DNA of 64,000 nucleotides from Ostreococcus lucimarinus (lineage: Eukaryota). Made by a program: the position numbers and the translations under genes. This document shows positions 425 to 63,734 of this stretch, one piece after another. The stretch lies in the NCBI GenBank assembly GCA_000092065.1, contig CP000583.1. One strand, 5' to 3'. Each line of letters opens with the position of its first letter. Positions within the stretch are counted from its first letter, which is position 1. The notes beneath the pieces were generated by a model. That model saw only the letters and a program-made list of their open reading frames with translations, did no database searches and was not told the DNA's origin.

Positions 425-2302
425 ATGGCGGTGGAGGACGCGGAGGACGTGGAGGACGTGGAGGATATCTTTCTCGACGTCGCGCGGCGCGCGGGACGGC
501 GCGGCGAGGACGCGCGGCGCGGCGAGGACGCGCGCGATGGCGCGGCGACGACGGCGGGCGCGGCGGCGACGGGGGGAGTGGGGACGGCCGAGCGAGGGCT
601 CGGACGGAGCGCGCGAGCGATGGAGGCGGTGGTGGACGCGCGCGCGCGACGGCGGGGGGGGGCGGGCGGTGACGGCGAAGGCGAAGGCGAAGGCGGAGGC
701 GAAGGCGGAGGCGGGCGCCGGCCGGGGACGGCGAAGATTTTCGTTCACACGTTTGGGTGCTCGCACAATCACTCGGATTCGGAGTTCATGGCGGGACAAT
801 TGCGGCGGTACGGGTACGAACTCGTGGACGCGCCGGAGAAGGCGGATGGGTGGTTGGTGAATACGTGCACGGTGAAGAATCCGAGCCAGAGCGCGATGAA
901 CACCGTCATCGAACGAGGCAAAGCGGCGAATAAAGCGATGGTCATCGCGGGATGCGTGCCGCAGGGCGATAAGGGTGCGAAGGAGTTACGAGATGTCAGC
1001 CTGTTGGGCGTGACGCAGATTGATCGCGTGGTGGAGGCGATGGAGCGAACGTTGGCGGGCGACACCGTGCGGATGCTGGAGAAGAAAGCCTTGCCCTCGC
1101 TCGATTTGCCAAAGGTGCGACGGAACGAGTTCGTGGAAATACTGCCGTTAAGCACGGGCTGTTTAGGTGCGTGTACGTATTGCAAGACGAAACACGCGCG
1201 CGGTGATCTCGGGTCGTACGAGATTTCTGCGTTGGTGAGTCGAGTCGAACAAGCGATGGCGGAGGGCGTCTCGGAAGTGTGGCTGTCTTCAGAAGACACT
1301 GGCGCGTATGGGATCGATTTGGGCACCGATGTCGCCGCATTATTTCGCGCCATCACTGCGGTTTTGCCCACGGATGGGTCGGTGATGCTTAGACTCGGCA
1401 TGACGAACCCACCGTACATCTTGGCGCACCTCGACGCCGTCGCCGAAGCGATGCGGCATCCATCAGTGTACGCCTGGATGCACATTCCGGTACAGAGTGG
1501 ATCCAACGCTGTCTTGGAGGGCATGAAGCGCGAGTACACGGTGGAAGAATTCAAACGCGTGTGCGATACGTTGCTCGCCGCCGTGCCAGGCATGGTCATC
1601 GCGACGGATATCATTTGCGGTTTCCCGGGGGAAACCGACGAGCAATGGCAAGAAACCATGAGCCTGATTGAAGAATATAAATTTCCAGAGGTTCACATTT
1701 CGCAGTTCTATCCTCGGCCTGGGACTCCCGCGGCGAAGATGAAGCGAGTGCCGACACAAATAGTCAAGGCACGTTCGCGCGAGCTCACAGCGCTCTTCGA
1801 GTCATACATGCCTCACGAGCACTTGGTTGGTAAAACCGAACGCGTTTGGGTGAGTGATATCGCGCGCGACGGCACATCGCTCGTCGCTCATACGAAAAAC
1901 TACACACAAATACTCTTACCTGGAGGCGAAGACCAAAGAGCGCGCTTGATGGGGCGGAGTGCCATGGTTGAAATTTACGAAGCGGCCCGTTGGTCTTGCA
2001 AGGCGAGAGTTTTAGAAGTCTTAGAAGTTGATCCTACCGTTGCCAGGGTAAAGCTTAACGTTATTTCGAGTGAAGAGGAGGCAAAAGCCATTCGTGAGAA
2101 GCTGACGAAAGGCAAACGCGTTCGCATGAAGAAGACTGAGGCGAACGGTTGCTCGACGTGCGGAAGCGACACTCCGTGCTCATCCGCCGAGACGACAGCA
2201 TTGTACGCGCGGTACTTTACGATTGAAGCCGCTTTAGTCGCCGGTGTGTGCGTTGGCGCAGTCGGTCTCGCGTATGCGACGTTATCTCGCTCTAGATACT
2301 AG
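425..2302 (+). CDS. CDKAL1: CDKAL1-like radical-SAM tRNA methylthiotransferase (MiaB/MtaB family) with low-complexity N-terminal extension and C-terminal TM helix
   Basis: UPF0004 N-domain [21 protein letters not shown], radical SAM CxxxCxxC ([18 protein letters not shown]), TRAM-like C-terminus and a terminal hydrophobic helix; ATG at 425 confirmed in sequence. Confidence 0.85.
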
Positions 2303-2332
2303 TTTGATATTGACAACCTACAGTTAGACGCG

Positions 2333-2959
2333 TCACGACGTCCGCCCGCGAGCAACTAGATAAATTTCCTTGCTCTCGCTTCGCGTCGCCTTCGGTTTGA
2401 ACCAATTTAGCTTGGCAAACCGTGGCTTACACGCTGCGACAAGTGCCTCTACGCTTCCGTCACCTTCTAAAATCTTCACTACCAAGTCGCCACGCAAACG
2501 CAACGCGCCTTCGCCGCCGCCGCGACTCATCGCGACATCTACCGCGCACTCTGCCAAATGCAACGACGCCGCCGCGTCTACGCTCGCAATGCCGCTCGTG
2601 TTCGCCATCATATCGCTAAGAATTAGATCGAACGAGTGCGCCCCGCCGAGTTCATTCAGAGTCGCTTCGTGCGCGTCCCGAACGAGCGTTCTCACGCGTG
2701 CCTCATCGATGTAGCGCATGCCCGATAATTCCACGTCTTGAAGGTCCACTCCTAACACTTCCGTGTGCTTCTCCCCGCGCGCGCAGCAGGCTTGGATCCA
2801 CGCCCCGGGCGCGCAGCCCAAATCGAGGATGCGGCTCTTCGAGCGCAGGAGACGAAACTTGTCGTCCAACTCGACGAGCTTGAGAGCGCTTCGCGCGACG
2901 TATCCGAGCTTACGGGCCGCGACGGCGATCGGGTCTATCGCACGCTTCGCCGCGGACAT
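2333..2959 (-). CDS. FtsJ/RlmE-type rRNA 2'-O-methyltransferase (MRM2-like)
   Basis: SALKLVELDDKFRLL..ILDLGCAPGAWIQ SAM-binding motif typical of FtsJ; first in-frame ATG (MSAAKRAID) at ~2959, ORF-track start 3019 is a non-ATG start. Confidence 0.8.
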   Translation of the reverse strand: MSAAKRAIDPIAVAARKLGYVARSALKLVELDDKFRLLRSKSRILDLGCAPGAWIQACCARGEKHTEVLGVDLQDVELSGMRYIDEARVRTLVRDAHEATLNELGGAHSFDLILSDMMANTSGIASVDAAASLHLAECAVDVAMSRGGGEGALRLRGDLVVKILEGDGSVEALVAACKPRFAKLNWFKPKATRSESKEIYLVARGRTS

Positions 2960-3011
2960 TTGTAGGGAGCATAGAATATGTAGGTGCGCTGACTTATGAC
3001 AAACAATAAGC

Positions 3012-3490
3012 TCAAGCACGCGACTTGTACGTGCCGTCTTCCGTGTTCACGATGATGGAGTCGCCGATGTTCACGAAGAGCGGCACGGTCACGACCGCAC
3101 CGGTTTCGATAGTCGCCGGCTTATCGCCACCACTCGCGGTGTTGCCCTTCAATCCCGGATCGGTCTGCACTACCTCGAACGTGTACGGGTTCGGCACCTC
3201 GCAGCCGATGACTTTGCTTTTCCACTGCACGATGCCGCAGTCCATGCCCTCCTTCACAAACTTACTCACCGCTAACGGCGGCACTCGAAGCTCTTCGAAA
3301 GTTTCCATGTTCATGAACATGTAGTCGTCGCCGTCCATGTACGTGTATTGCATAGTATCCTTGGTCACCTCGGCGAGCTCAAACTTTTCGCCAGAGCGAA
3401 ACGTCTTTTCGTTCGTGTTCCCGGTGAGTAAGTTCTTGAGCTTCGTGCGCACGAACGCCGACCCGCGACCGGGCTGTACGTGCATAAATT
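3012..3490 (-). CDS. efp: Elongation factor P (organellar EF-P), exon 3 of 3
   Basis: EFMHVQPGRGSAFVRTKLKNL..KDTMQYTYMDGDDYMFM..; KOW and OB domains of EF-P; exon begins after AG acceptor at ~3491-3492 (phase 1). Confidence 0.85.
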
Positions 3491-3632
3491 CTACTCAAGA
3501 CAATCGACGATCGATTTCCGTCAGTCGTGGCCTCGTCTTCGTGCATTTAAGCGATTTGCGCGAGCAGCCGTCGCTCTCGCGCCTGCGAGTGGATAAAGCG
3601 TACGCGTGCCGTTCGTCATCGCCCGCACGCAC

Positions 3633-3714
3633 CGGTGATTCTCCACGGGTTGGAGTCGATCTCGAGCGAGAGTCCAACCTTGAAATCCGCGGTCGAGCAC
3701 GTCAGCGCGTTCAC
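3633..3714 (-). CDS. efp: EF-P exon 2 (VNALTCSTADFKVGLSLEIDSNPWRIT)
   Basis: Reverse-strand translation gives the canonical EF-P N-terminus ADFKVGLSLEIDSNPWRI; donor GTGCGTGCGG at 3632, upstream in-frame stop forces an acceptor CAG at ~3715. Confidence 0.65.
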
Positions 3715-3828
3715 CTGCGGTCACAACGCGTCGTCAGTCGAGGACTCGTTCGCGGCGAGGCGAGGGCTGCTGTCGTCATCGTCATCCCGTCGAGTCGCGT
3801 CGCGAAGCGTCGTCTCGCGAAGGCGTAC

Positions 3829-3924
3829 CTTGACCGGACCGCGGACACTAGACGCACGCTTAGTGACGGTCGACGTGCGCGTGAATGCGCGGACGCTGGA
3901 GATGGATTGCGACGCGGAAAGCAT
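3829..3924 (-). CDS. efp: EF-P exon 1: 32-aa Ser/Arg/Thr-rich presumed organellar transit peptide (MLSASQSISSVRAFTRTSTVTKRASSVRGPVK)
   Basis: ATG at 3924..3922, phase-0 donor AAG|GTACGC at ~3828, branch ACTGACGACG 15 nt upstream of acceptor CAG; exon lengths 96/82/479 nt total 218 codons in frame. Confidence 0.55.
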
Positions 3925-3973
3925 CGTGTGTGCGTCTTAAAGTGCGGCGTCTGGGCGGGTTGGTTTTCTGTTG

Positions 3974-3978
3974 TTACA
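3974..3978 (-). promoter_or_regulatory. UGUAA-type poly(A) signal downstream of the NTE stop
   Basis: TGTAA on minus strand 18 nt after the stop; TGTAA also found just 3' of VAP (36262-36266, overlapping the stop), beta-amylase (~36387-36391), CCT-alpha (~27120), PDE (~31270) and DUF1295 (~20635). Confidence 0.45.
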
Positions 3979-3995
3979 CTGTCCTCGTGCGGACA

Positions 3996-6900
3996 TTAAT
4001 TTTGCGATTGCGTGCTCATGAACAGCGCTGGATCGATCGCTAAGGGAGCGTCTGATTGGCTGTGATCAGTGAACGTGCGAACAAGCTGGGAACCAGGACG
4101 CGGAGAGAGCGTAGACGCAGTCTCGGCGGGGTCGTTGCTCGGCAAGAGGGCGGCGCGAGGCGTGGCGCCGGATTTGCGAGTCGTGCGCTGCTTCATGGAG
4201 TCCGAAGCTCGCTCGGTGACAACGTTCACGCGCATATTCGGCGGTTTGGGCAAGCTCGTTGACTTTGACCCGCTCGTTCGCGGTGAGCGATGAGGTGAAA
4301 CGCGGTTTCTGTCGAAACTGTTGCGCGGAGAGACGTGAGGAGAGATGTTTGGCGACTCGGGATCGCTAACGGCGGCAAACGCCGATGCGGCCATTTGGAG
4401 TTCAGCGTGAGGTTTGTTGACGTCGACGTCTGAAATTCGCCGTTCCTCCTTCGCTTTGTGCTTCCAGTTCGTGATGGCGGTGTTCGTGTACGCTTGTGCC
4501 TTTCGCACCGCAGCGTCCATCTGAGACAACGTCAAGCCGTGAGCCATCCACGAAGACACGCCTGGAGGTCGGAGGTGCATGTTGATTCGATGGTCTCGCG
4601 CGACGAGCTCGAGGTGCTTCTTCGTCGTCGTCGCCGTCAATGCGTTCAGAACGTCCGCGTACGATGGGTGATCCAGTCGTTCTGAGGCACTCTTTGACTT
4701 GCGCGAGTCAAACGGGTTCAATCGATCCCACAGCAAGCCGAAACTGCTCATGCCTCCATCGTGCGGCGTGAGATCGCGGAAGCTAATGAAATCTTTGTCT
4801 TCTACGTCCACAACGATCACAGTCTCGACTCCCATCTCTTTTCGCATCACGTCTACGGGAACGCTGTTCAGGTAGCCCCCGTCAACGAGTAACTCACCAT
4901 TCTCGTCGCGAACCGGAGGCAAGAGCCCGAGAACCGTCATCGACGCTCGAATACACCGCCAAAGACGTCCAGAAGTGTGCACATTCAAACACTGTTTGTT
5001 TAAATTTGTGCTACAGCAGAAAAAGTTCAGCCACAGATCTTCGATGGAGGTATCAGCGCCCACGGAACTCTTGATGATGGTGTCCAAGCCCTTGCCGCTA
5101 AAGAGCGAAAGCAGCGGGAGTGTGAGATCGGTGAGCAAATGATGAGGAGAGTTCAGAACGTGCATGTTGTTGCGAAGCATTGGGAGTATGTGCGATGTTG
5201 ATAATGTCCTAGCATACATCCCTGCTGTGAGCGTGCCTTGACTGGTGCCACCGATACAATCGATTGGAATTCCATTCTCCTCGAGCGCACGTAACGCGCC
5301 CAAATGAGCCAAACCACCGCCGCCTCCGCCGGTCAAGATCACGCCAACGCTATGTCCGGACACATACCTCGCGAGGCGTGACATGTCATCCCTCGACGCT
5401 AGTCTCACGTGATGATGGCGTTTGATTGTAGTTCTGTTTTCCTGCCAAGTCTTTGTTTGCGACGGCGTGCTTCCAGGCTCGTGAATTAGTACCAGTTCTG
5501 GACGTGCGCTGTTTCGTGTGCGCCAAAGTAGTCGTTGCTCGTACAGAAGCGGCATCTTATTCTCATGATTGCCGTGTGCCACGACTAATACACAATCCGC
5601 TTGGCTCGCACAAACTTTACTCCAACTTGATGCACGCGGATCCGCTTGGAGGACGATGAAACGATGCACTTCCTCTTGTTCTGCCATCCATCCAGTGAGC
5701 TTTGAACGGTAAAACAGGTTGTCTAGGCGATGAGTCGTTTCGTCAGCGAAAATTTCATCGATAACTGAACTCGTTAGCAGCAGTGTGGATCCAAACATGG
5801 AAAGCGCACTTTGAAGAGCGCTTGCAAACTCGTTGATTTGTGTGCGTGGGCCCGCAGGTATGAGGCAGATCGTCACGAGCTCAGCGAGCGAACGGTCGCC
5901 AGTTCGAAGGTTATTCTGCAGTTTGCAAGCGACGAGTTCAAGAAGTCGACTCGATACCTCAGAGTGATGCGCGTTGATCAGTTTCAGCGCTCCGTGCGAC
6001 ATTCTGACGAGTTCTGTATCGCGTGAAGTGACTGCAGTTGAGGAATACTTCCCATGCGCGAGTAAAGGCGCTTCTCCGATGGTATCGCCTCGACCGCGTT
6101 CCCGAATTATTTCATCTCCACTACTCGTGTGACGTGGAAACCGTAAACGCACGCGTCCACTGATGATGACAAACATACTTGTGGCATCTTCATTGGTCAT
6201 AAAGACGTGATCTCCGCTTCTCAGCCACACTCGATTGAGACCGAAGCCGATGAAATTACGAATGAGAACGCCAAGAGACGAAGACGTTTGACGGAGCAAA
6301 GAGATGTATGCCTCAGTTTCAGCTGTACACAAATGCTCGAGAACTTCTCCTGTTATGACGAGCATTTCACAATCTTCATCCGCCTGTTGGGTTTCTCTGA
6401 AGAGTGAGCGTGTCATAAAGTGCGCCGAACCGATCAACTGTAACGCTCGCACCGGCTTCCCACGCAGCCCGTCGCCTTTCGGCCATGGAATGGCTTCCCG
6501 CGCAATCGATCCCTTCAGAAGGATGTAAAACGCATCCGTAGAATCTCCTTCGGCAAAAATAATCTCACCCTTTTTTATTTGTTTGCGTGCGCAATACTTC
6601 TCCACGGTCGGTAAGTGCTCCAAGAAATCTGAATTTGCGAGCGAGCATGCGTCGTCCGCCTCAGGTTGACCGCGAAGCGATTGCCGAGGCATGCCAAGAA
6701 AATCAATCAGCGAAAACTGCGCCACGCGCCACAATCGCGCGATCGCTTGTTGCAAATACAGCTGCAAAGTGTGCGGATGCTTTCGAACGAAGTCTAAGAA
6801 GATGCGCTGTGAGACTCGCACTACCTTTGCCCCGCCCTGCATGGTGATGCAACTCACGCTTCGTCTCGCGCTGTCGAGGATGTCTATATCTCCCACCGAC

Positions 6901-7348
6901 TCTCCCTCTTGTAAAATATTCGTCATCACAGGTGGCGCTCCATTCGTCGGTTGCAAATACACTCCCACCGATCCCTCGACGACGACGTATATCCCACTCG
7001 AACTATCGTCTCCTTGCCGAAAAAGCACTTCATTCGGCGCCAACACCTCCTCCTCCGACGCCTCAAACAGCTCTCTCGACAACTCCAACTCTAACACGCT
7101 AAAAAACTTCGTACTCGCGAAAAAATTAGGCGTGTTCTCATCGTTCACGTCTTCTCCACTCGCGCTCGCGAAAAACTGTCCCGACGTCCGCGACCCCTCC
7201 AGGTCGCCCTCGTCGCTCCAAAATTCATCCTCTCGACTCGTCGAGCTGCTCATCCCGCGCTGACTCTCGCGCGATCCGAACGACCCAACGCGCAGGACTT
7301 CCGCGCTGTCTCCACCGTCCACGCGCACGCCTCGTCGATTGCGTCCTC

Positions 7349-7628: not shown

Positions 7629-10600
7629 ATGTCCGAACACGCGGCGCCGACGCGCGACGCGCGGAAGCAAAGCTCGCGCTCGGGCGCGTCGAGCGCGTCC
7701 AAGCACCCGATCGTCACGCTGGGCGTGTGCGCGATGGATAAAAAGTCGCGCTCGAGCGCGATGCGAGAGATCCTGACGCGGATCGAATCGTTCGGGGAGT
7801 TTGAGATTGTGATATTCGGGGACGAGTGCGTGGTGAACGAACCGGTGGAAAATTGGCCCAAGGTGGACGCGCTGATCGCGTTCTACAGCAATGGGTTTCC
7901 GTTGCAAAAGGTGGAGCGGTACGTGGAGATGCACAAGCCCTTTGTGGTGAACGAGCCGAACGACCAGTGGACGCTGCTGGATCGGAGATTGGTGTATAAG
8001 CGGTTGCAGGAACACGATATTCCAGTGCCGAATCACGTGGTGGTGAATCGTAACGATTACATCAAGAAGGGGGCGCTCAGGAAGAAGCCGAAGGGGGATG
8101 AAGTGGCGTTGCCCGATCAACCGACGTTCGAGCCAAAGAATTTCTCACAGGACGAAGAGTACGTGGAAATCAACGGGAAAAGGATATATAAGCCCTTTGT
8201 GGAGAAGCCGGCGAACGCGGAGGATCATAACATTTTTATCTACTACCCACACAGCGTCGGTGGGGGGTACAAGCGCTTGTTTCGGAAGATTGGTAATCAA
8301 TCGAGTCAGTACTACCCTCCTCCTGAAACCACCGCGGCGGGCGAGTTGTCTTACGCCCCGGTTCGGGAGACGACATCTTTCATTTACGAAGATTTCATGT
8401 CAACGAACGGTACAGATGTAAAAGTGTATACTGTTGGTCCGAATTACGCCCACGCCGAAGCTAGAAAGAGTCCAGTCGTCGATGGAAGAGTGCAGAGAGA
8501 CGAGAGCGGCAAGGAGGTGCGTTACCCGGTATTGTTGACGCCAGAGGAGAAAGAAATCGCACGCCGTGTGTGTATAGCGTTTGGGCAGCGAGTTTGTGGA
8601 TTTGATTTACTTCGTGCGAAAGGTCGAAGCTACGTTTGTGACGTCAATGGATGGAGTTTTGTGAAAAACTCCAAAAAATACTATGACGACGCTTCGGTGT
8701 GCTTGCGAGCGATGATTTTGAAAGCCGTAGCGCCGAATCACTTTAGCACTCAGCCTGCTCAAAAAGCCGCGGCATCGGCTAGTGTTGAAGAGCCTGATAT
8801 CATTTTAGATGGTAATGATGCCGAATTGAAGGAAACCAGACTCGAGAAGGCGCCATCACCCAAGGAACCGCCTGAGGAGTTGCGCGCCGTACTCGGCGTC
8901 ATTCGGCACGGCGATCGCACGCCCAAGCAAAAGATGAAACTGAGAGTGAAAAATCGTGAACTTCTTGATCTCATGCTTCGATGCACGAACGGTCGAACTC
9001 GCAAGCAAGCTAAATTGAAGACGCCTCAGACATTGCAAGAACTCTTGAATATTTGCAGGGACATTTACAAAAGTTTGTCTAAGCAAACCTTGGCGCCGAA
9101 AGACGAGGAGGGACATGAAGAGGCGCAAGAAGAACTCGAAGCGTGGAAACAAGTAGTGTCGATTCTCGAAGAAGGAGGACACTTTAGTGGTATCAATCGT
9201 AAAGCGCAGCTCAAACCTCTTGAGTGGGAGACAATCGATGCTGGAACGCTAGACTCTCACACAGAAAAAGTCACCGAGGCTCTCCTCATCATCAAGTTCG
9301 GCGGTGTTTTGACTTATTTGGGTAAATATCAAGCCGAAACACTCGGTAAGGCATTTAGAGTACGAATGTATCCTCGTGGTAACTATTACGGCTCGGACGC
9401 TGATGGTTTACTGAGATTACATTCAACCTATCGCCACGATTTGAAGATTTACTCCTCCGATGAAGGTCGAGTGCAGATCACTGCTGCAGCTTTTGCGAAA
9501 GGTTTACTCGCCCTCGATACCCATCATGGACAGCTCACGCCGATTCTCGCTTCTCTCGTTACCAAAGATGCAAAGTTGTTGGATTTCGTGACTCATTACG
9601 TGGAAGAGGACATCTTACACTCAAAGCACAAGCTGTTCACGGCGATGACATACAAGCCAGATGCACAGCTGAATGACAAAAAGCCGACCGAAGAAGAAAT
9701 TGGGGGATTGTCGCAGACCTTGCGATTTGCTTCGCTGAATAAATTCAAGGTGGTGACACAAATGGTTATGGCTGCGCATCGCTTTCAAAGCGCTGGCGAA
9801 TCATCCCACCACGATACGACTCAAAAAGCTGTCACGCTTTCAACCAATCTCATGGGTGTACCGAAGCAGCCACTCAAGAAACTCGAAATGCTGTATGAAC
9901 TCACGAAATCAATTTCGGTGCAGCTTAGAACGATGCTTTCTAGCCACCAAGTGCGATATGATTCCGATTCCGGCACTAGAATCAACTGGGCCGACACGCA
10001 TTCCGCCGTCGCCCCACGTGGTTCACTTCCAAAAGGAGGTATTCAACAGCTTAAAACCATGATCGTTCCCGCTGGCGGTGAGTCCTTTTTGCTCATGTAT
10101 TCCAGATGGAAAAAGTTAGAGCAAGATCTTTACCATTCGCGTAAAGCTAGGTTTGACATCTCGAAAGTACCAGACGTCTACGACGCGGTAAAATACGATG
10201 CCATTCATAACGAACATTTGGCTTTAGAGGGACTCGAGGCGTTGTACGAAATCGCGAAAGAGCTAGCAGATTGCATTGTTCCGAATGAATACGGTACGAC
10301 GGCTTCGAGCAAGCTACGAATTGGGGGCACCGTTGCCAACAGCTTGATTGCAAAATTGCTAAGCGATTTGAACAACACTCGCGAGGAATCTTTCGCCGTC
10401 GAAAGCGGTGGAATGTCATCGAATGAAATGCGCCGTGTTTCTATCAGCGAAAAGATACCGGTTTTAAATGAAGAAGACGAGGCCGAAACGATCGACGAAG
10501 AGACTGAGCGAGAACGTGAGGAGCAGGAAGAAGAAGAGGAAGAGCTGAACACGACTCGATTGAATTTGCGATACGCCACGGCGCACGGTGTGCATAGCCC

Positions 10601-11363
10601 ATTCAGACACGTGCGCACGCGGCTTTATTTCACCTCTGAATCTCACTTGCATTCGCTCATCAATGTACTTCAGTACGCGCACCTGGACAAGCCTCGAGAA
10701 GATCGCGAGCGAGGTCGCTCTCCGTATCACACCGAACATAGCGAAAGCGACGTCGATGCAAAGGGTCCGACGAAACGCACTTCTACGAAGGGAAGCTCGC
10801 GCGCGAGCAGGGTACCGCCCGGTTTGCCGCTAGGGAGCCCGAAAAAGGAAGAGGATGCTACCAGCGCAAACTCAAGCGTGAGTGCTACGAATGAAACCGT
10901 CAGGCCTTCGCTCATCGACGATGCCTTGGGAGCGTTGTTTAAGCGCGAGAAGGAGCTCGATTATCTTACCCACATCGTGTTTAGAATGTTCGAACGTTTC
11001 CATGTTCCTCCGTCAGATCCTCGACGCTTTCGGATTGAAATTTTGTTCTCCAACGGCGTCAGTTTACACCCGTTTAAGACCAATGCCATCGAACTTTTCG
11101 ACAGCAGCGCTAGGAACGGTGTAGCAGATGAAGACGAGGAGATGATATCTGATGATTTGCTCAAAGAAATACAGATTCAAAACGATAAAATCATGCCTGG
11201 ACAGGATTATCTCACTCTTAGCACCATGGAAGAGTACTTGGTAAACTACAATCGACGCTGGAACAAGGGAGGGGATTCAGCCGATGGCACGCCCGGGAAA
11301 GGCGCGAGGAGCTCGAGTGTTGGCAGCGAGCGAATCAGGGCGGGAAAGAACCTCTTTACTTGA
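7629..11363 (+). CDS. VIP1: Inositol hexakisphosphate / diphosphoinositol-pentakisphosphate kinase (PPIP5K/VIP1): ATP-grasp kinase + histidine acid phosphatase domains
   Basis: N-terminal block IVTLGVCAMDKKSRSSAMREIL..NEPVENWPKVDALIAFYSNGFPL matches PPIP5K closely; RHGDRTPKQK histidine-phosphatase motif; ATG at 7629. Confidence 0.9.
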   Translation: MSEHAAPTRDARKQSSRSGASSASKHPIVTLGVCAMDKKSRSSAMREILTRIESFGEFEIVIFGDECVVNEPVENWPKVDALIAFYSNGFPLQKVERYVEMHKPFVVNEPNDQWTLLDRRLVYKRLQEHDIPVPNHVVVNRNDYIKKGALRKKPKGDEVALPDQPTFEPKNFSQDEEYVEINGKRIYKPFVEKPANAEDHNIFIYYPHSVGGGYKRLFRKIGNQSSQYYPPPETTAAGELSYAPVRETTSFIYEDFMSTNGTDVKVYTVGPNYAHAEARKSPVVDGRVQRDESGKEVRYPVLLTPEEKEIARRVCIAFGQRVCGFDLLRAKGRSYVCDVNGWSFVKNSKKYYDDASVCLRAMILKAVAPNHFSTQPAQKAAASASVEEPDIILDGNDAELKETRLEKAPSPKEPPEELRAVLGVIRHGDRTPKQKMKLRVKNRELLDLMLRCTNGRTRKQAKLKTPQTLQELLNICRDIYKSLSKQTLAPKDEEGHEEAQEELEAWKQVVSILEEGGHFSGINRKAQLKPLEWETIDAGTLDSHTEKVTEALLIIKFGGVLTYLGKYQAETLGKAFRVRMYPRGNYYGSDADGLLRLHSTYRHDLKIYSSDEGRVQITAAAFAKGLLALDTHHGQLTPILASLVTKDAKLLDFVTHYVEEDILHSKHKLFTAMTYKPDAQLNDKKPTEEEIGGLSQTLRFASLNKFKVVTQMVMAAHRFQSAGESSHHDTTQKAVTLSTNLMGVPKQPLKKLEMLYELTKSISVQLRTMLSSHQVRYDSDSGTRINWADTHSAVAPRGSLPKGGIQQLKTMIVPAGGESFLLMYSRWKKLEQDLYHSRKARFDISKVPDVYDAVKYDAIHNEHLALEGLEALYEIAKELADCIVPNEYGTTASSKLRIGGTVANSLIAKLLSDLNNTREESFAVESGGMSSNEMRRVSISEKIPVLNEEDEAETIDEETEREREEQEEEEEELNTTRLNLRYATAHGVHSPFRHVRTRLYFTSESHLHSLINVLQYAHLDKPREDRERGRSPYHTEHSESDVDAKGPTKRTSTKGSSRASRVPPGLPLGSPKKEEDATSANSSVSATNETVRPSLIDDALGALFKREKELDYLTHIVFRMFERFHVPPSDPRRFRIEILFSNGVSLHPFKTNAIELFDSSARNGVADEDEEMISDDLLKEIQIQNDKIMPGQDYLTLSTMEEYLVNYNRRWNKGGDSADGTPGKGARSSSVGSERIRAGKNLFT

Positions 11364-11509: not shown

Positions 11510-12997
11510 TTAATCACCGTTCTCCCACACGAGCATGGTGCGCTTGCCGACCATGACATCGACGAGTTGTCCAAGACGCGTGAACACGGACTCTTGCACG
11601 TAGGGGACACCATACTTCTCGCACACAGCCTTGACGCGCGGCTGCATGTTTTGGTACGCGCGCATGGACATGTCCGGGAACATGTGGTGCTCGATTTGGT
11701 AGTTCAACCAGCCGTGCATGAAATCGTTCGCATCGCCGCCAGTCTTGAAGTTCGCGGAGCCGATCACCGCGCGGAGGTAGAAATCATCCGAACGAGGCTT
11801 CGTTTCCGTCTCGAATCGGTAGATGTCGTCGCCGACGTGGTTGGTGGCGATGATGATGAACGAGTGAACGTTCGTCATAACGTCCGCGAGGACGGAAGTC
11901 ATGAACCAGGCGAGCGCAGCCTTCGGGCCGCCGATGGCGTAGCCAATCGCCGGCAGTGCGGCGAAAGACCAGAGCGCGTATGGAGCGAAGCACTTGATGG
12001 TTTCAGACACAGCAGCAAACTCGCCCTTGAACGCGCCTTGAGCGACCGTGAGAACGGTTGACGGAAGGCTGCCAGTCTTGAACGGGTTTGGCTTGGAGTT
12101 ACCAGCCTTGGCGGCTTCACGCTCCTTACGCGCGAGAAGTTCCTTCAACGTGTTCGGCGCGTAGTAAAACCACTTCCAGACGAGCGCGAGACCAGCGACT
12201 TGGAGATAACGCGACACCATCGGGGTGTTACCTTCGCGGAGCTCTTGCATGTTGCGCTCAACGAGATCCGGATCCGCATCTTCGCCGAGTTGATAATGGT
12301 GCAAGTGGTTGTGTTCTACGTCCCACGCCTCTGGGAGCATCCAATCCATCCAATCGGTGCATCGTCGCCACAAACCGCGCGCAAACTTTCTGCGGTGGAA
12401 TCGACCAGTGACTTCCCCGTTCGTGCTCTGCGCCGCGTTGTAACCACCGTGGCACGTGTGGTGACCGACCATAGTCCATCTCGCGCAAATCGCAGTCGAC
12501 ATCATGAACGCCGCGATCGGATTCATCCCGTTCAACCAAGCCGGCATGTTCAAACCCACCATCGGCATCGCCGTCAGCGCCGCCAACCCGCCAAAGTAGC
12601 ACAGGTTCGCCCACGTCAAAATCTTCTTCAAGTGCTTCACATCCTCCTCGAAGTGTTCCGGCGCCTTGAATTCCTTCTCTATCGCGCGCATTTCCGCCGC
12701 CCATCCCGCGAGATCGAGGTTCTCACGCCACTTCCCCGTCTCGTTGTACGTCATCGTCGTCATCGTCGCCAGAGAGTCAGAGCCGCTCGCCGCGCCGTCG
12801 ATCGCGATCGCCTTGTTCGCGCACGCATTCGCCCCGCGGTTCACGTCCCGCGTCGCGTTCGCGGAGATCGCACCAGCGCGCGCGATCGCGCGCGGCGTTT
12901 GCGCGACGCGTTGACGCGTCGTCGTCGCGCGCGCGCCGTTCGCGCGCGCCGCGGTCGGGCGCGCCGTCAACGTTCGCATCGCGAACGCGCTCATCGT
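11510..12997 (-). CDS. Membrane fatty-acid desaturase with front-end-type His boxes (HHTCH / HNHLHH / QIEHHMFP), no cytochrome b5 domain, Ala/Arg/Thr-rich presumed plastid transit peptide
   Basis: Three histidine boxes with QIEHH third box; N-terminus MSAFAMRTLTARPTAARANGARATTT transit-peptide-like; ORF-track start 13201 is GTG, first ATG ~12997. Confidence 0.7.
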   Translation of the reverse strand, partial: TMSAFAMRTLTARPTAARANGARATTTRQRVAQTPRAIARAGAISANATRDVNRGANACANKAIAIDGAASGSDSLATMTTMTYNETGKWRENLDLAGWAAEMRAIEKEFKAPEHFEEDVKHLKKILTWANLCYFGGLAALTAMPMVGLNMPAWLNGMNPIAAFMMSTAICARWTMVGHHTCHGGYNAAQSTNGEVTGRFHRRKFARGLWRRCTDWMDWMLPEAWDVEHNHLHHYQLGEDADPDLVERNMQELREGNTPMVSRYLQVAGLALVWKWFYYAPNTLKELLARKEREAAKAGNSKPNPFKTGSLPSTVLTVAQGAFKGEFAAVSETIKCFAPYALWSFAALPAIGYAIGGPKAALAWFMTSVLADVMTNVHSFIIIATNHVGDDIYRFETETKPRSDDFYLRAVIGSANFKTGGDANDFMHGWLNYQIEHHMFPDMSMRAYQNMQPRVKAVCEKYGVPYVQESVFTRLGQLVDVMVGKRTMLVWENGD

Positions 12998-13570
12998 CGT
13001 CTGTGCGGCGTTCGAGATCGAACGTGCGATCGCGGGCGTTGACGAAGGCGTCTTCGTCGTCGGCTTCGCGCGCGGGCGTCGGTCGGACGCGTCGCTGTGC
13101 CGCGCGAGCGTCGGCGGCGGGGCGCCAATCTTATCTCGGCGCGCGCGTGACGTCGTCGTCGTTCGATTTAATGGGTAGTCGGTGTGTTCGTATGCGTGCA
13201 CGCGGGCACTGTTTTTTTTCGGACATACGGGTCAGTCATTATCAGTTGTGTGCTGTTTATGTAAATACCCGGAATCGACGTCATTGGGTATAAGTCCGAA
13301 TGTCCGATTTTGCGGCTGAGGACGGAGTGATGGATGTAAATTTGAACCGATGGTGATGAAACTCCGCGAAATCACGCGTAATCAACGGTCGAAAATGGCT
13401 AGACGCCGCGCGCGCGGGCGCGCCGTGTCGGTCCGGCCGCAAAGATATGATTCAAAGTCTCGGTCGGTCGCGCGGCGGAGAGCGCGGGGAGGAAGTCTGG
13501 CTCGCGCGCGCGAAGGATCGCGCGCGAGAAAACTGTTTGCTTGTAAATAATCGTGGTGGTGATGATATTA

Positions 13571-18248: not shown

Positions 18249-18364
18249 CTGCGTACGATGAAAGTCTCGTCAGTCGCCCGTTCTACGAGCCCAAATATTT
18301 CTCCTGATTCGCGCGATCATTTCTCAATCCTCTATCACCACGGCGCTAGTCGTAAGGAACATAC

Positions 18365-27158: not shown

Positions 27159-28649
27159 CTACTGACCCTCCTGTTCGGGTTCGAGTTGAATCAAGTCGTC
27201 GATGCGGAGAATCGTAATCGCAGCTTCAGTGGCAAACTGGATGCTCTTCACCTTGCTCAACGCCGGCTCGAGGACACCGCTGGCGATGTTGTCGCGAAGT
27301 TCGCCCTTGACGAGATCCAAGCCCATCCCGGCGAGCTCTTCGTTACCTTGACTCTGTGCTTGATGATGAATAGCTCGAAGCTTGGCCACGAGATCGGTGG
27401 AATCCTTCGCAGCGTTGACAGAGAGTACCTTTGGGATGACCAAGAGCGCGTTGGCAAACTCGGCGATGGCGAGCTGCTCCCGGCTACCCAGAGTAGTCGC
27501 CATATTCTCCAGATAAATGCTCAACGCAGCTTCGACGGCGCCACCACCAGCGACAACCTTGCCACTTTCCAACGTCCTCTTCACGATGCACAGTGCGTCG
27601 TGCACCGAGCGGTCGATCTCGTCGAGCATATAATCGTTTGCGCCTCGCAAGAGAATTGTACACGATTGGGTGCTCGCGCAGTCCTTGATGACGACCATAT
27701 CATCATCAGCCACGCGTTGCTCCACCACTTCGCCCGCAGTGCCAAGCATGGACTCGTCGAAAGTTTCTCCACCATCCATGTCGGACAGAGACAGCATCAC
27801 TTGCGCCCCCGTCGCCTTGGCGATGCGGCGCAAATCATCACGATTGACGCGACGACAGGCGATAGCCCCAGCCTCGACGAAGTACTTGAGCGCCATATCA
27901 TCGATGCCCTTAGAACAGAGCACGACATTGGCACCGGCGGCTAAGATCATCTTGATGCGATTGGCGGTGATTTCAAACTCTTGCTCGCGAATCTTTTCGA
28001 GTTCCTTCGGGTCGTTCACCAGCACTTGAATCCCCATCAACATCTTTGTCTTCTGCAAGTTGAAGTCGATGCACGCAATCTTTGCATTCTTGACTAACTT
28101 TGGCATCCCTTCCGCCGCACGACCGAGGTTAAGGGCGTATCCGTGCAACACCGATGACTCCTTCAAGCTCTTCCCGTGCGCCTTCAAAATGTTGATCGCC
28201 TTGATGGGATACCTGACGTCGCCCATGTCGTTGTACGTCTTGATGCTCGTGCACGCATCGACGACCAAATCCGCAAAGAAATCTTCTTCGGCACCGATGA
28301 TTTTCGAGCTCATGCTCGTCTTTGCGCACTGCAACAAGGCTTCCTTCCCGAGCGTCTCCACGTCTCTCGCCAACTTACCTTCGACGTACTTGACGCTTTC
28401 TCGCATCGCCAACCTGAACCCAGCGATGATGTTCGTCGGGTGAATCTTATTCCTCACCAACTCATTCGCCCGCTTCAAAAGCTCCGCGGCGAGAATCACC
28501 ACCGAAGTCGTTCCATCTCCCACTTCCTGATCCTGCAACTCGGCGAGCTCGACCAAGATCTTCGCCGCCGGGTGTTCAATCTCTAAAAGTTTCAAAATCG
28601 TCGCCCCATCGTTCGTGATCGTCACGTCACCGATATCATCCACGAGCAT
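27159..28649 (-). CDS. CCT1: T-complex protein 1 subunit alpha (CCT1/TCP-1 alpha), exon 3 of 3
   Basis: [72 protein letters not shown] is near-identical to animal and plant TCP-1 alpha; acceptor tAG|ATG at ~28650. Confidence 0.9.
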
Positions 28650-28767
28650 CTACGCGTCAAACCCTTTCATTCCGTCAGTCCTCGTCCCTCACCGCGCGCG
28701 CGCATCGTTTCGTCGATTCTCCGCGTCTCGTCCTCAAAGTCAACGCCTTCGCGTCTTCGTCACGCGC

Positions 28768-28832: not shown

Positions 28833-29021
28833 CTGTTCGCATCCCGCGTCGCGCGCGCGTCGTCGTCAGTCTCCGTCTCCGTCTCCGTCTCCGTCTCCCC
28901 GCTCGAAGTCGCGCGTCCCGTCGATCGTCGATCGTCGATCGTCGTCCTCGTCCCATCGCGTTCGAGATCGCGTCCCTCGTTCGCTCGCGCTTCGTCGCTC
29001 GTCGTCGTCCGCGCGCCGCAC

Positions 29022-29088: not shown

Positions 29089-29192
29089 GGCGCGCGGCGT
29101 CGCGCGTCGGCGAGTGGCGCGTCGGACGCGTTGACCGCGCGGCGCACTTCGCGTCGCGTCGCGTCGCGAGGCGACACAAGGCGTCGAGCGCG
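29089..29192. promoter_or_regulatory. ~105-bp head-to-head spacer, putative bidirectional promoter (CCT-alpha / TYW1)
   Basis: Divergent ATGs at 29088 (minus) and 29193 (plus). Confidence 0.5.
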
Positions 29193-35445: not shown

Positions 35446-35703
35446 GTGCGTGCGAACGACGCGCGAGCGCGCGGACGACGCGACGAGACGACGCGCGCGA
35501 CGCGCGCGCGAGAGACGGGATCGCGCGGCGACGCGCGACGCGAACGAGACGGTCGAAGGCGTTCGATCGCGAAGAGATCTTTGAATTTCAAAGTGGATTA
35601 TCGGAGACGCGGACGCGCGAGGCGCGCGTGTGATCGACGCGGTGACGAGGGAAGACGGGAGACTGACGATGAATCGATGAATGCGATGTTTCGCGAAACG
35701 CAG

Positions 35704-56590: not shown

Positions 56591-56962
56591 GTGCGTGACC
56601 TCGAGCGAGCGACGAAAGACGACGCGAGCGCGAACGACGCGCGCGCCGGTGGCGCGCGACGGCCGGGACGCGCGTCGGGCGGACGCGCGCGGACGGAACG
56701 ACCGCGGACGAGACGCGGCGATCGCGACGACGCGCGCGCGCGTTCGAGGGCGGTCGCGCGCGATGCGATCGTCGCGCGCGCGGTCGGCGCGCGCGGATGA
56801 AGGGTGGATATCGTGAATTCGACGCCGGCGCGGCGCGCGGCGGCGACGGCGGCGGTGGGAGGGCGACGGGCGGGCGATGGGGGGGCGCGGCGCAAGCCCT
56901 AGAGTCGACGACGGCGCGAACGCGACGCGCGGAGGACTGACCGAGACGTTTTATCGACGCAG

Positions 56963-57066: not shown

Positions 57067-57194
57067 GTACGTACGCGTTTAGGTTTTTTCGCGCGACGAG
57101 CGCCGACGAGTCGCGCGAACGACGCGATCGATGACGCGATTTTGACGACGACGACGCGCGAGTACTGACGATGATGATGTGTTCGTACGCGCAG

Positions 57195-60491: not shown

Positions 60492-63467
60492 TTAGGACGC
60501 TTTCAGTAGAACCTCGAGGATGGAGTCGGGCGCGATTCTTGCCACGTCGTCGTCGTCCGCAATCAAGGTGTCCGGTACCTTGAAAATCTGAAGCACTTGC
60601 ACGGGCTTAACTCTGAATTTGAGCGCAATCTCTTCTCGTAGTTCAAGGTACGTCTGTCGACCGAAAGGAATCTCGCGATAGTAACGCTCATTTGGAACCT
60701 TCACCTTGAGAGACACCGCTTGGTCGATAGGAAGTCCGATGGCTTGCTTGTCGACCTTGGCACGCATTCGGCGCGTATTATCAATGATTGTCGCCGCGTC
60801 TTCTGGCGTTAGCACCGCCGCTTCTTGCAATTCGGTGAAAAATCTAATCTTCAACGTCTCTGGACGAAGCTTTGCCGGTACTGATGCTCGTCTGGTTATC
60901 GTGAGATGCACATCGAGCAGAAATCCATGCTTGACGTCGTACACGAGTTCAATGATGGGGAGGTATCCTTCCCAACGCGTGATATCTTCCTCTTGCCACC
61001 TGACGCGCTGAATTGTGGTATCACCATTCGCGACACCATCTTCGCCAATGATAGCTTTGAACGCCAAATACTCGTCGAGAGCGTCGAGATTCATTGGTTT
61101 GTTCACCTTGATGCGATATGAAATTGCTCCCGCAGACTTGTCATCGATCGCCCTCGTTAAATAATACACGCCAAACGCAACCCCGACCCACGTACACATG
61201 CTAAGAATGAACCAGACCAGTGGTTTGTTCATAAACGGATCAACAATGTACGATCGAGCCCACTCTGTGTGCACGACGCTCCATTCGCCAGTGAGTCTGT
61301 CGAGCAACTCAAACGCAAGCATACCCGCGAAAATGAACTGCATGGTGTATAAGCTTGTCCCTTGTTTGCTGTTCGACTTGATTTGCACCAGCATCTCTCC
61401 ACTACTACCGCGAATGTCTTCGTGCACGCGCAACGCCTGCGACTCGGCTACTGTGTCCACCATGATTCGTAACCCATCGATTTCTTTGCGCGCCGCCTCG
61501 AGGATTTTCCGCATATCCGCCACACGAACCGTGAGATCAGCGAGCATAACTTTCAGGCCAAGGATTTCATAAAGTCTTCTTCCGCTTTCAGTATCTGGAA
61601 TGGTGTGAATACTCTCGTCTTGTTCGATTGATTCCTTCAAGTACACCAGGATTTCCTCGAGCAAAATGATGTCGCGCGAAGTCTCAGCGAGAGTGTGACG
61701 AATATTCGCAACACTGTTCGGATCTTCCTCGTGATTTTTAATCATCTGCCGGACGAGCTTGAGAATGTCATCCGTCATAAATATTCTGTTGAATACGTTG
61801 TGCACGAAGACATCTCTGGACATGATGGACAGGTACATCAACATCACTGGTTCCTGCGCCTTGGCGTTTGGGCCCGTGAGTAAGATGCCGTGAGAACCGG
61901 TGATGACGACATCACGGTCGCTCAAATCGTACGCTTCGTGCGTATCACCTAATACTTGTCTTAACTCGTTTTCGAACGCGTCCTTATCCATGTACATGTC
62001 CGCAGCCTGTTGCGGGGCAATGCGCTCGGCGATGATGATGTTAATTTTGTCTCGTCGTTCGGCGTTACCGAGGAAAACAGTTTGGAGCAAATCACGCTGA
62101 TGATCGCTCAATAGCGAATCTAAAATCGTACTTGAGTCCATATGCACGTCCACGAGTAAGCGCGCCAAGTTATCGAGCGAGATATTGTCCAAAATTCGAT
62201 CCATGACTGATTCAATCATCAAACCGTGCACAATGGTGCCGTCTTTGCGCAAGTGAATGCCAAAGTGCTCGACTTGCACGATACCATCGTCCTCAGGGAA
62301 GTGTACTTGAGCCTCAATGTTGGTGAACGTCGTCATATCATGGTCCAAAATGCTTACATTTGTCAAACCAGCTGGGATCTCACACGTTGCGTTGGTCGAG
62401 TCCGTATCCACCGTGGGGGTGAAGAATCCGCCCTGACATCTGTCGTTTGATCCCAGCTTCATGTTCAACTTGACGATTTGATTCACTCCGAACGGAATCC
62501 ATTCACCAACTAAGATTGTCACGTTGGATACCGTCATGACCTCGTCCAAATCATCGCGAATCGTGCTGTCTTTAGCCGCGCTCTCCGACGCTCGGTGCGA
62601 ATTTGACGACGTCACGGGACCACCTACACGCCGTAAAGCCAACGGAAGATACGGTGATACGACGTACGACACGTCTTCTACATCAGTTATTGTCGATTCG
62701 AACGAAATCGTTTCATTTCTCAAGTAAAAGGTCTCATCTTCCCACACCACTTGCAAAAGTTTCCCGTCGGCGACGCACAGCTCGTCCACCAACTGTCGAT
62801 CCTCTTCGCTCATGCGCTTACTCACGAGCGCCAACCCAGCGGCGGTGATCTGAAACGCCAAAACGCTCTGATGTTCCGCACTGCTCAGCCTCAACCCACG
62901 AATGAGCTCTCCCTCGATCAAATCGTCCAAATCGTCCACCCCCTCCTGCGACACGTTCAAGTACAAGCGCGTATTCTTCACCACCGTCGACTCCGGCGCG
63001 TAATCGTACTCGAACACCTTCTGCACGATCCCCTCATAAATCAACACCAACAGCGGCAACTTCCGCACCCACACCTCCTTCTCGTACGCCGACTGCGCGC
63101 GGTGCGAATACTTCGACACCAAGTACAACAGCTTCAGGTGGCTCACCGTCCAGTAATCGTCGTGAAACTCTCGACGCACTCTCGGCGTCAACCGCGCCGT
63201 CTCCGCCCTCGCGTCGACCAACGGTTTATCCTCGTACCCACTCCCCATCGTTTCCCACCCCCCCCCGCCGCGCCCGTCCTCGCCGTCGTCCTCGCGCGCG
63301 CCCTCGCGCGCGCCGTTCCCCCGCGGCTCGCGTCCCATCGTCGTCGTCGTCGTCCCCCCCCGCGCGTCGTCGCGCGTCCGCTCGCGCCGCACCGCGCCGT
63401 CGCGCACCGCCCGCTGCGCCTCGCGCGCGCCCGCGTCCGCGAGTCGCGCGATCGCGCGCGCGTCCAT
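60492..63467 (-). CDS. Large conserved hypothetical protein (~990 aa) with two C-proximal TM helices in a CorA/MRS2-like topology (no GMN motif) and a ~250-aa tail ending in a ubiquitin-like/PB1-like segment
   Basis: Long non-repetitive ORF; coiled-coil then TM1 SLYTMQFIFAGMLAF and TM2 PLVWFILSMCTWVGVAFGVYYL; C-terminal LKVKVPNERYYREIPFGRQTYLELREEIALKFRV..VLQIFKVPDTLIADDDDV. Confidence 0.5.
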   Translation of the reverse strand: MDARAIARLADAGAREAQRAVRDGAVRRERTRDDARGGTTTTTMGREPRGNGAREGAREDDGEDGRGGGGWETMGSGYEDKPLVDARAETARLTPRVRREFHDDYWTVSHLKLLYLVSKYSHRAQSAYEKEVWVRKLPLLVLIYEGIVQKVFEYDYAPESTVVKNTRLYLNVSQEGVDDLDDLIEGELIRGLRLSSAEHQSVLAFQITAAGLALVSKRMSEEDRQLVDELCVADGKLLQVVWEDETFYLRNETISFESTITDVEDVSYVVSPYLPLALRRVGGPVTSSNSHRASESAAKDSTIRDDLDEVMTVSNVTILVGEWIPFGVNQIVKLNMKLGSNDRCQGGFFTPTVDTDSTNATCEIPAGLTNVSILDHDMTTFTNIEAQVHFPEDDGIVQVEHFGIHLRKDGTIVHGLMIESVMDRILDNISLDNLARLLVDVHMDSSTILDSLLSDHQRDLLQTVFLGNAERRDKINIIIAERIAPQQAADMYMDKDAFENELRQVLGDTHEAYDLSDRDVVITGSHGILLTGPNAKAQEPVMLMYLSIMSRDVFVHNVFNRIFMTDDILKLVRQMIKNHEEDPNSVANIRHTLAETSRDIILLEEILVYLKESIEQDESIHTIPDTESGRRLYEILGLKVMLADLTVRVADMRKILEAARKEIDGLRIMVDTVAESQALRVHEDIRGSSGEMLVQIKSNSKQGTSLYTMQFIFAGMLAFELLDRLTGEWSVVHTEWARSYIVDPFMNKPLVWFILSMCTWVGVAFGVYYLTRAIDDKSAGAISYRIKVNKPMNLDALDEYLAFKAIIGEDGVANGDTTIQRVRWQEEDITRWEGYLPIIELVYDVKHGFLLDVHLTITRRASVPAKLRPETLKIRFFTELQEAAVLTPEDAATIIDNTRRMRAKVDKQAIGLPIDQAVSLKVKVPNERYYREIPFGRQTYLELREEIALKFRVKPVQVLQIFKVPDTLIADDDDVARIAPDSILEVLLKAS

Positions 63468-63734
63468 CGTCGCGCGCGCGTCGCTTAGTGCGACGCGCGC
63501 GCGACGCGAACGGGCGCCGCGGGCGCGCACGGTGCGCGATGCGGGACGGGATTTCGTGACGCGTTTTTACCCCGATCGATCGATCGGACGTTGGACGCGC
63601 ACATAGCACTAACGGCGCGTACACTACGCGCGACGCGAACGAATAGGGGCGCGACGCGGGACGGGATTTTGTGATTTGACGGCGCGGATTCGATTCGATT
63701 CGATTCGACGCGACGGGCGTCGGACGGCGACGCG

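Follow-up and report, generated by a model that had tools for sequence, protein, structure and literature searches.

We analysed a 64,000-nt stretch of Ostreococcus lucimarinus DNA (GenBank assembly GCA_000092065.1, contig CP000583.1; hereafter the window) and characterized, at positions 3924..3012 on its minus strand, a locus that encodes the translation elongation factor EF-P. The locus is very probably a nuclear gene with three exons and two short U2-type introns of the standard Ostreococcus class, which specifies a 218-residue precursor of an organellar-type EF-P. Several intronless ORFs of the window are identical to O. lucimarinus sequences, among them XP_001416969.1 of strain CCE9901 and MMETSP transcripts of O. 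'lucimarinus'.

An organelle-targeted EF-P split into three exons had been proposed for this region by an initial annotation made from the nucleotide sequence alone, and the exons are present as proposed, in agreement with assembled contigs, a transcript open reading frame (ORF) from MMETSP and the annotated protein of Ostreococcus tauri. Exon 1 (3829..3924, minus strand; 96 nt) carries the start codon and the predicted 32-residue Ser/Thr/Arg-rich presequence (MLSASQSISSVRAFTRTSTVTKRASSVRGPVK at 3924..3829), and is joined to exon 2 in eight contigs (L014–L021). Exon 2 (3633..3714, minus strand; 82 nt) supplies the end of the presequence and the start of the KOW-like domain (VNALTCSTADFKVGLSLEIDSNPWRIT plus the first base of a Glu codon), and the canonical EF-P N-terminus ADFKVGLSLEIDSNPWRIT lies inside it (3714..3633), as had been claimed. 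Exon 3 (3012..3490, minus strand; 479 nt including the stop codon at 3014..3012) encodes the rest of the KOW-like domain with its QPGRG loop, the OB domain and the C-terminal domain. The exons are separated by intron 1 (3715..3828, minus strand; 114 nt), with a GTACGCC donor, the motif GACTGACG at 3739..3732 and a CGCAG acceptor, and by intron 2 (3491..3632, minus strand; 142 nt), with a GTGCGTG donor, GACTGACG at 3526..3519 and an AGTAG acceptor; the putative branch-point A lies 20 nt (intron 1) and 31 nt (intron 2) from the 3′ splice site.

The exon lengths keep the frame: together they make 657 nt, a single ORF of 218 sense codons and a stop. Read-through of the unspliced region meets stop codons in both introns, and an in-frame TAA (3939..3937) stands upstream of the ATG. 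Only the last exon shows in the list of ORFs of the window, as a 157-residue ORF (3012..3485, minus strand) that begins MHVQPGRGSAF; ADFKVGLSLEIDSNPWRIT and MLSASQSISSVRAFTRTSTVTKRASSVRGPVK each fall within a short listed ORF upstream of it on the same strand.

The encoded protein and its destination

EF-P helps bacterial-type ribosomes to form peptide bonds between consecutive prolines. The window product is a member of this family with three domains—a KOW-like N-terminal domain, an OB domain and a C-terminal OB domain—and is matched, in each case above the Pfam cut-offs, by EFP_N (PF08207; residues 39–96, 87.3 bits, full model 1–58 of 58 positions, across the exon 2/3 junction), EFP (PF01132; residues 105–154, 57.8 bits) and Elong-fact-P_C (PF09285; residues 164–217, 84.7 bits). 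It scores 221.8 bits against the NCBIfam equivalog TIGR00038 'efp' (cut-off, 185.8), stays below threshold for the paralogue models EfpL (110.6 bits; cut-off, 216) and YeiP (98.6 bits; cut-off, 264), and aligns end to end with solved EF-P structures (query residues 39–217 versus chain residues 3–184, E = 2e-53). Window and bacterial EF-P (TIGR00038; structures 6rk3, 1yby, 3a5z, 6enj and 1ueb) are alike in their three domains, full-length alignment and basic residue at the tip of the β3–β4 loop, whereas a nuclear gene with spliceosomal introns, a 38-residue presequence and a Pro-Gly-Arg-Gly loop set the window protein apart.

The 38 residues that precede the EF-P domain include 8 Ser, 5 Thr, 4 Arg and 2 Lys, with no Asp or Glu. 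This segment diverges quickly between lineages, and comparable N-terminal extensions are found in green-lineage homologues (Micromonas, Mantoniella and land plants). An acid-free extension of this length, rich in Ser, Thr and Arg, together with these homologues, points to targeting to an organelle. We consider the plastid the probable destination, on the basis of the green-lineage distribution of homologues and of the land-plant orthologue, which we take to be a chloroplast stromal protein. Mitochondrial or dual delivery, in place of delivery to the plastid, seems unlikely, although bacterial-type ribosomes are present in both organelles and a presequence that is basic, hydroxylated and acid-free is compatible with targeting to either one. 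In sequence similarity, cyanobacteria are not clearly ahead of other bacteria, and the scores themselves (Apilactobacillus, 224 bits; Oscillatoria, 215 bits) do not settle the choice between plastid and mitochondrion. What tells against mitochondrial delivery is that every close eukaryotic homologue recovered comes from a photosynthetic group, of the green lineage or another, and bears a similar extension, as well as the presumed stromal location of the land-plant protein. Mitochondria, moreover, are reported to use TACO1/YebC as their factor at polyproline motifs (bioRxiv 10.64898/2026.05.28.728419).

The β3–β4 loop, the part of EF-P that extends to the peptidyl-transferase centre, reads Q-P-G-R-G (3478..3464, minus strand; residues 64–68), with Arg67 at its tip, and the stretch hvqpgRgsaf of the window protein aligns with hvkpgKgsaf of the solved structures. 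Arg67 occupies the position of Lys34 of Escherichia coli EF-P; the tip residue is basic, as in the EF-P family, and Pro is kept at −2. Q-P-G-R-G is found in all Ostreococcus sequences seen and H-P-G-R-G in Bathycoccus-like ORFs, and 106 other fetched relatives have K-P-G-K-G. K-P-G-K-G is the loop of the hits from Micromonas, Mantoniella, land plants, cyanobacteria and Lactobacillales, and the Pro-Gly-Lys-Gly form is that of most bacteria. Volkwein et al. (2019, PMC6544042) report that in bacteria a tip Arg is combined with Pro at −2 in just 2.33% of Arg-type EF-Ps, and that this Pro prevents functional activation through EarP rhamnosylation. Given so rare a loop, in which Pro would bar the EarP route, the organellar EF-P could work unmodified or use an undescribed modification, amounting to a natural switch of EF-P activation strategy in a eukaryotic organelle; we offer this tentatively and rate it as rather doubtful. 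The activity of the protein may also differ in detail from that of model EF-Ps, given the loop-tip Arg.

Transcript-level and comparative evidence

An exact-sequence look-up retrieved the 218-residue product from a public protein collection (P0227). It is encoded by the eight contigs L014–L021, which come from eight different runs and match the window in three blocks at 99.8–100% identity; the pieces missing from them are exactly 3828..3715 and 3632..3491, with placement ambiguities of 1–4 nt that resolve to GT...AG. The same junctions are found in a 218-residue MMETSP transcript ORF (P0230), which differs from the window product at three residues, and in the annotated O. tauri protein XP_022838516.1 (P0232; 217 residues). 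We regard transcription through the EF-P region and precise removal of both introns as demonstrated.

The intron-less contigs might themselves be genomic, derived from alleles or strains with precise loss of both EF-P introns or from a retrocopy, and would then be no proof of splicing here. L014 does look genome-like: it is 6.2 kb long and, except for the two EF-P intron gaps, colinear with 6924..436 of the window, a segment with four genes from both strands. P0230, however, is explicitly a transcript ORF; a contig from another run (L022) lacks both introns of the CCT-alpha gene with equal precision; genomic contigs of the same population (L007–L013) retain the EF-P introns; and, in a genome as compact as this one, overlapping transcripts could be assembled into contigs of several genes. 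A genomic origin of the intron-less contigs is very improbable, and even then exact loss at GT..AG boundaries would mark the missing segments as spliceosomal introns.

The four genes spanned by L014 are NTE/patatin, EF-P, FtsJ and the next ORF; their presence on one contig with spliced EF-P suggests that, in so compact a genome, adjacent genes have overlapping transcripts. The spacers between genes around EF-P are about 70 nt or less, and the end of the FtsJ ORF at 3019 overlaps the EF-P stop at 3012.

We further compared the locus with syntenic loci (NTE/patatin, EF-P, FtsJ) from at least two other Ostreococcus lineages, in which exon 3 is about 88% identical. Exon 2 is exactly 82 nt in these relatives and aligns gap-free at 78–84% identity, and exon 1 is 96 or 99 nt (a multiple of three) and 61–76% identical. 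Orthologues of intron 1 measure 114–126 nt, are 35–43% identical and have their own ACTGAC or ACTAAC; those of intron 2 measure 91–116 nt (142 nt in the window), are 33–46% identical and all have a GTGCGTG donor and ACTGAC. Across lineages, both introns keep a GT[AG]CG start, ACTGAC (once ACTAAC) 25–41 nt from the end and a YAG acceptor. Exons that are conserved, and introns that have diverged with their signals kept, identify these segments as spliceosomal introns under selection only at the signals.

The annotated O. tauri protein, 'Translation elongation factor P/YeiP, central' (XP_022838516.1 / CEF97154.1), shares a 90%-identity cluster with the window protein. It likewise has an N-terminal presequence, the GPVK|V and WRIT|EF junction contexts and the QPGRG loop, and differs in coming from another species and in having a presequence one residue shorter. 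Neither this 90% cluster nor the top 120 hits contained an O. lucimarinus CCE9901 accession for EF-P, and the 2007 reference annotation of O. lucimarinus may lack a model for the gene. Beyond Ostreococcus, Bathycoccus-like (P0051, P0065 and P0079) and Micromonas-like (P0068, P0083 and P0096) genomic ORFs break at or just upstream of EF(M/Q)HV, which is the position of intron 2; this position may be conserved across the Mamiellales.

Other introns of the window

Besides the two EF-P introns, the initial annotation had listed five other definable introns and a likely one in a PZP-PHD gene. All eight introns are present, seven of them with a match to a spliced contig or a reference protein and that of the PZP-PHD gene with comparative support.

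The CCT-alpha gene (minus strand) has two introns. Intron 1 (28833..29021; 189 nt; GTGCGGC donor, GACTGACG, AACAG acceptor) is missing from the spliced contig L022. Intron 2 (28650..28767; 118 nt) is a GC-AG intron, AAG|GCGCGTG...GACTGACG...CGTAG|ATG, and its suspected GC donor is borne out by L022 and by a conserved protein junction. L022, which encodes the 540-residue protein P0278, joins ...GGACTGGACAAG|ATGCTCGTG... with both introns removed. CCT-alpha exon 2 ends in ...GPVGLDK, and the sequence GLDK|MLVDD is without variation or interruption in all aligned homologues except the reference model; AAG|GCGCGTG is the only donor that yields this junction. The reference CCE9901 protein (P0279; 542 residues) carries an extra 'AR' between GLDK and MLVDD, which corresponds to the first six bases of the intron (GCGCGT, 28767..28762, minus strand) and is present in no homologue, nor in L022/P0278. 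No canonical GT-AG combination reproduces the extra 'AR' of the reference model, in which the GC donor has probably led to misannotation. The protein of L022/P0278 differs from the window product at one residue, and the window product has no exact look-up match. In this contig, L022:1-276 (which includes the end of a 77-residue Gly/Arg-rich ORF) matches nothing in the window, the match starting abruptly at 29107; this piece is probably a chimeric transcript assembly, or comes from a strain with a different upstream neighbour.

The gene of a VAP (an MSP-domain protein) has one intron (35446..35703, plus strand; 258 nt; GTGCGTG...GACTGACG...CGCAG). Its spliced product of 204 residues equals the reference protein XP_001416683.1, and the Pfam domain Motile_Sperm (residues 6–107) extends across the junction at residue 18. 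RPL39 has two introns on the plus strand: intron 1 (56591..56962; 372 nt; ATG|GTGCGTG...GACTGACC...CGCAG) and intron 2 (57067..57194; 128 nt; GTACGTA...TACTGACG...CGCAG). The 51-residue spliced product equals XP_001416689.1. The first coding exon of RPL39 consists of the ATG alone (56588 onward), and intron 1 is the longest and most G+C-rich (76%) of the eight.

The predicted intron of the PZP-PHD gene (18249..18364, minus strand; 116 nt) has a GTATGTT donor, GACTGACG and a CGCAG acceptor. Similarity to the protein of a relative (L023) sets in precisely at residue 72, with which exon 2 opens; conservation of exon 1 in this relative reaches as far as TCG|GTACGTG, after which comes a shorter intron with its own GGACTGAC...AACAG. 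The product has no exact look-up match, a single homologue was found, and no Pfam domain extends across the predicted junction.

Splice signals

The donors of the eight introns (GTACGCC, GTGCGTG, GTGCGGC, GCGCGTG, GTGCGTG, GTGCGTG, GTACGTA and GTATGTT, in the order EF-P, CCT-alpha, VAP, RPL39 and PZP-PHD) all share the core G-Y-R-Y-G. By position, G is invariant at +1 and +5; +2 is T in seven introns and C in one, +3 is G in five and A in three, +4 is C in seven and T in one, and +6 is T in six. The rule that the initial annotation had drawn for the donor, G[T/C]GCGTG or GTACG[CT], holds for six of the eight and fails for CCT-alpha intron 1 (GTGCGGC) and the PZP-PHD intron (GTATGTT); exact GTGCGTG, found in three of eight, is a consensus rather than an invariant signal. 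Its branch motif, GACTGAC[GC], fared better: ACTGAC occurs once in every intron, preceded by G in seven and followed by G or C in all eight, and GACTGACG is found in six. The motif ends 16–34 nt before the AG, within the 15–45 nt proposed, which places the putative branch A 20–38 nt from the 3′ splice site, and the acceptor is YAG throughout. Intron interiors are dominated by the tetramers CGCG, GACG and CGAC, with no polypyrimidine tract before the acceptor. The PZP-PHD intron, at 50% G+C, is an exception to this CGCG/GACG-rich interior.

ACTGAC is scarce in the window as a whole, with 13 sites on both strands versus 21.6 ± 4.6 in dinucleotide shuffles, and this shortage may reflect selection against cryptic branch sites, or codon and composition effects. 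Eight of the 13 sites lie inside the introns, which add up to 1,437 nt, so that the motif is enriched 141-fold there (Fisher p = 3e-13). The depletion of ACTGAC outside introns gives the motif its discriminating power; a loose donor adds little in G+C-rich DNA. The suggestion that donor...ACTGAC...YAG triplets could be used to find further exons did not hold up in this loose form: the scan of the window returned 10 candidates versus 11.3 ± 3.6 in shuffles, which is not above chance, and with a degenerate branch motif it returned 21 versus 37.6 ± 6.4. A scan of the genome should therefore lean on the branch motif and a strict donor.

Of the five ACTGAC sites outside the eight introns, those at 27161 and 46940 (plus strand) were rejected as introns, being the complement of coding sequence (the CCT-alpha C-terminus and a 2,400-residue ORF, respectively), as were those at 11063 and 8310 (minus strand), which lie antisense inside the plus-strand ORF 7629..11363. 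At 13241..13209 (minus strand; ACTGAC site 13236), TGACTGACC is followed by a run of A and a CAG 27 nt downstream, in an AT-richer segment 5′ of the ORF 11510..13201; with no strict donor nearby, this could be the 3′ end of an intron in a 5′ untranslated region, or chance. Near the end of the window, at 63608..63646 (plus strand), GCACTAACGG precedes ...AATAG and has GTGCGCG 76 nt upstream of it; the site lies outside the long minus-strand ORF 60492..63530 and may belong to an intron of a gene that extends past the window end.

Shared motifs of this kind could also arise if the introns had been copied from one mobile family of introner elements, as in Micromonas, and local alignment scores between pairs of introns do exceed mononucleotide shuffles (z up to 10.7). 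The excess disappears against dinucleotide-preserving shuffles (58 versus 48.9 ± 3.6, maximum 59; 49 versus 46.0 ± 4.1; 45 versus 47.0 ± 3.3), so that the similarity between introns reflects their CGCG/GACG-rich composition; moreover, intron positions are conserved between Ostreococcus lineages but the sequence between the signals is not. We judge copying from an introner family to be extremely improbable.

Relation to known intron classes

The eight introns belong to the standard Ostreococcus class found outside chromosome 2. Irimia & Roy (2008, PLoS Genet 4:e1000148, PMC2483917) devoted a section, 'The Peculiar Case of Ostreococcus', to O. lucimarinus, in which 319 introns outside chromosome 2 confirmed by expressed sequence tags contained ACTGAC in 87.2% and GACTGACG in 66.5% of cases, with a donor of 'atypical consensus GTGCGTG' (4.8 bits). 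The introns of chromosome 2 form a second class with weak signals (PMC2483917); many introns without ACTGAC are therefore to be expected there, a known exception to the generalization drawn by the initial annotation. The 'very constrained signal set' that it described is an accurate rediscovery of what is already known for this species since 2008. The introns of the window have the same signals as the published class, with no substantive difference, and add single examples to it, among them an intron of the GC-AG type and one with a GTATGT donor.

Mamiellales as a group prefer GYGCGY donors (Roy & Bowser 2022, bioRxiv 10.1101/2022.06.08.495308), a consensus whose Y at +2 and C at +4 accommodate the GT donors of the window as well as its GC donor. 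We rejected a co-evolved U1 small nuclear RNA (snRNA) as the cause of C at +4, as U1 snRNA candidates of Mamiellales keep the standard pairing sequence (bioRxiv 10.1101/2022.06.08.495308). That study deals with U1 snRNA genes, of which the window has none by Rfam; no Rfam match to an snRNA or other RNA was obtained in the window at gathering thresholds. More broadly, a strong donor combined with a near-invariant branch hexamer is a convergent pattern of intron-poor eukaryotes (PMC2483917). Ostreococcus shares with the Saccharomyces-type signals (GTATGT, TACTAAC) the strong donor, the near-invariant branch hexamer, the short fixed distance and the dispensability of a polypyrimidine tract; in contrast to Saccharomyces, its hexamer is ACTGAC rather than ACTAAC, its donor has C at +4, and a second, weak class exists on chromosome 2.

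Interpretation

Several points weigh against reading the locus as an ordinary plastid-type EF-P gene with introns of the standard class. The loop tip has Arg where most relatives have Lys; raw similarity is not specific to cyanobacteria, as the Apilactobacillus and Oscillatoria scores given above indicate; we infer that the intron-less contigs are RNA-derived, with the MMETSP transcript ORF as backing; and the intron of the PZP-PHD gene is predicted from comparison. That the 157-residue ORF (3012..3485) is the whole gene, the EF-P-like and presequence-like stretches upstream being chance or a decayed remnant, has next to no chance of being correct: although its product is exactly what prokaryote-style gene callers report on metagenome contigs (it is listed in 1,225 blocks of the protein collection, and P0001–P0004 are the same truncated form), it lacks the first 24 of the 58 EFP_N model positions, all of which are matched by the spliced product, exon 2 is kept at 82 nt without gaps in other lineages in which its flanks diverge, and all 218 residues are encoded both by contigs that lack the introns and by a transcript ORF, which refutes it.

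The preferred three-exon model gives the following course of expression. The gene is transcribed from the minus strand, and removal of the two U2-type introns (114 and 142 nt) gives the 657-nt coding sequence of the 218-residue precursor. By analogy with U2-type splicing in general, the donor would be recognized despite imperfect pairing with U1 (PMC2483917), and the (G)ACTGAC(G) box would pair with the branch-site recognition sequence of U2, with its penultimate A bulged; the A of ACTGAC is the putative branch point, and the first YAG 20–38 nt downstream of it would serve as acceptor. The signals of the class are a strong GYRYG-type donor (consensus GTGCGTG, occasionally with GC), the nearly invariant ACTGAC box and YAG, between which CGCG/GACG-rich filler evolves freely. 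The presequence of about 38 residues, whose codons lie in exon 1 and at the beginning of exon 2, would most likely direct import into the plastid and then be removed, and the remaining 180 residues, a complete EF-P, would relieve polyproline stalls on organellar ribosomes.

The biological weight of these observations is small: the structure of the gene is already known, being annotated in the sister species O. tauri, the rule for the splice signals was published in 2008, and the locus is ordinary. Only the Pro-Gly-Arg-Gly loop might come as a mild surprise to a specialist. In practical terms, the signals are strict enough for short exons hidden in raw sequence to be recovered with them. On marine metagenome contigs, this EF-P is systematically cut to 157 residues by prokaryote-style gene callers, and our results suggest that the reference annotation of O. 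lucimarinus contains a two-residue error at the GC-AG intron of CCT-alpha and may lack an EF-P model.

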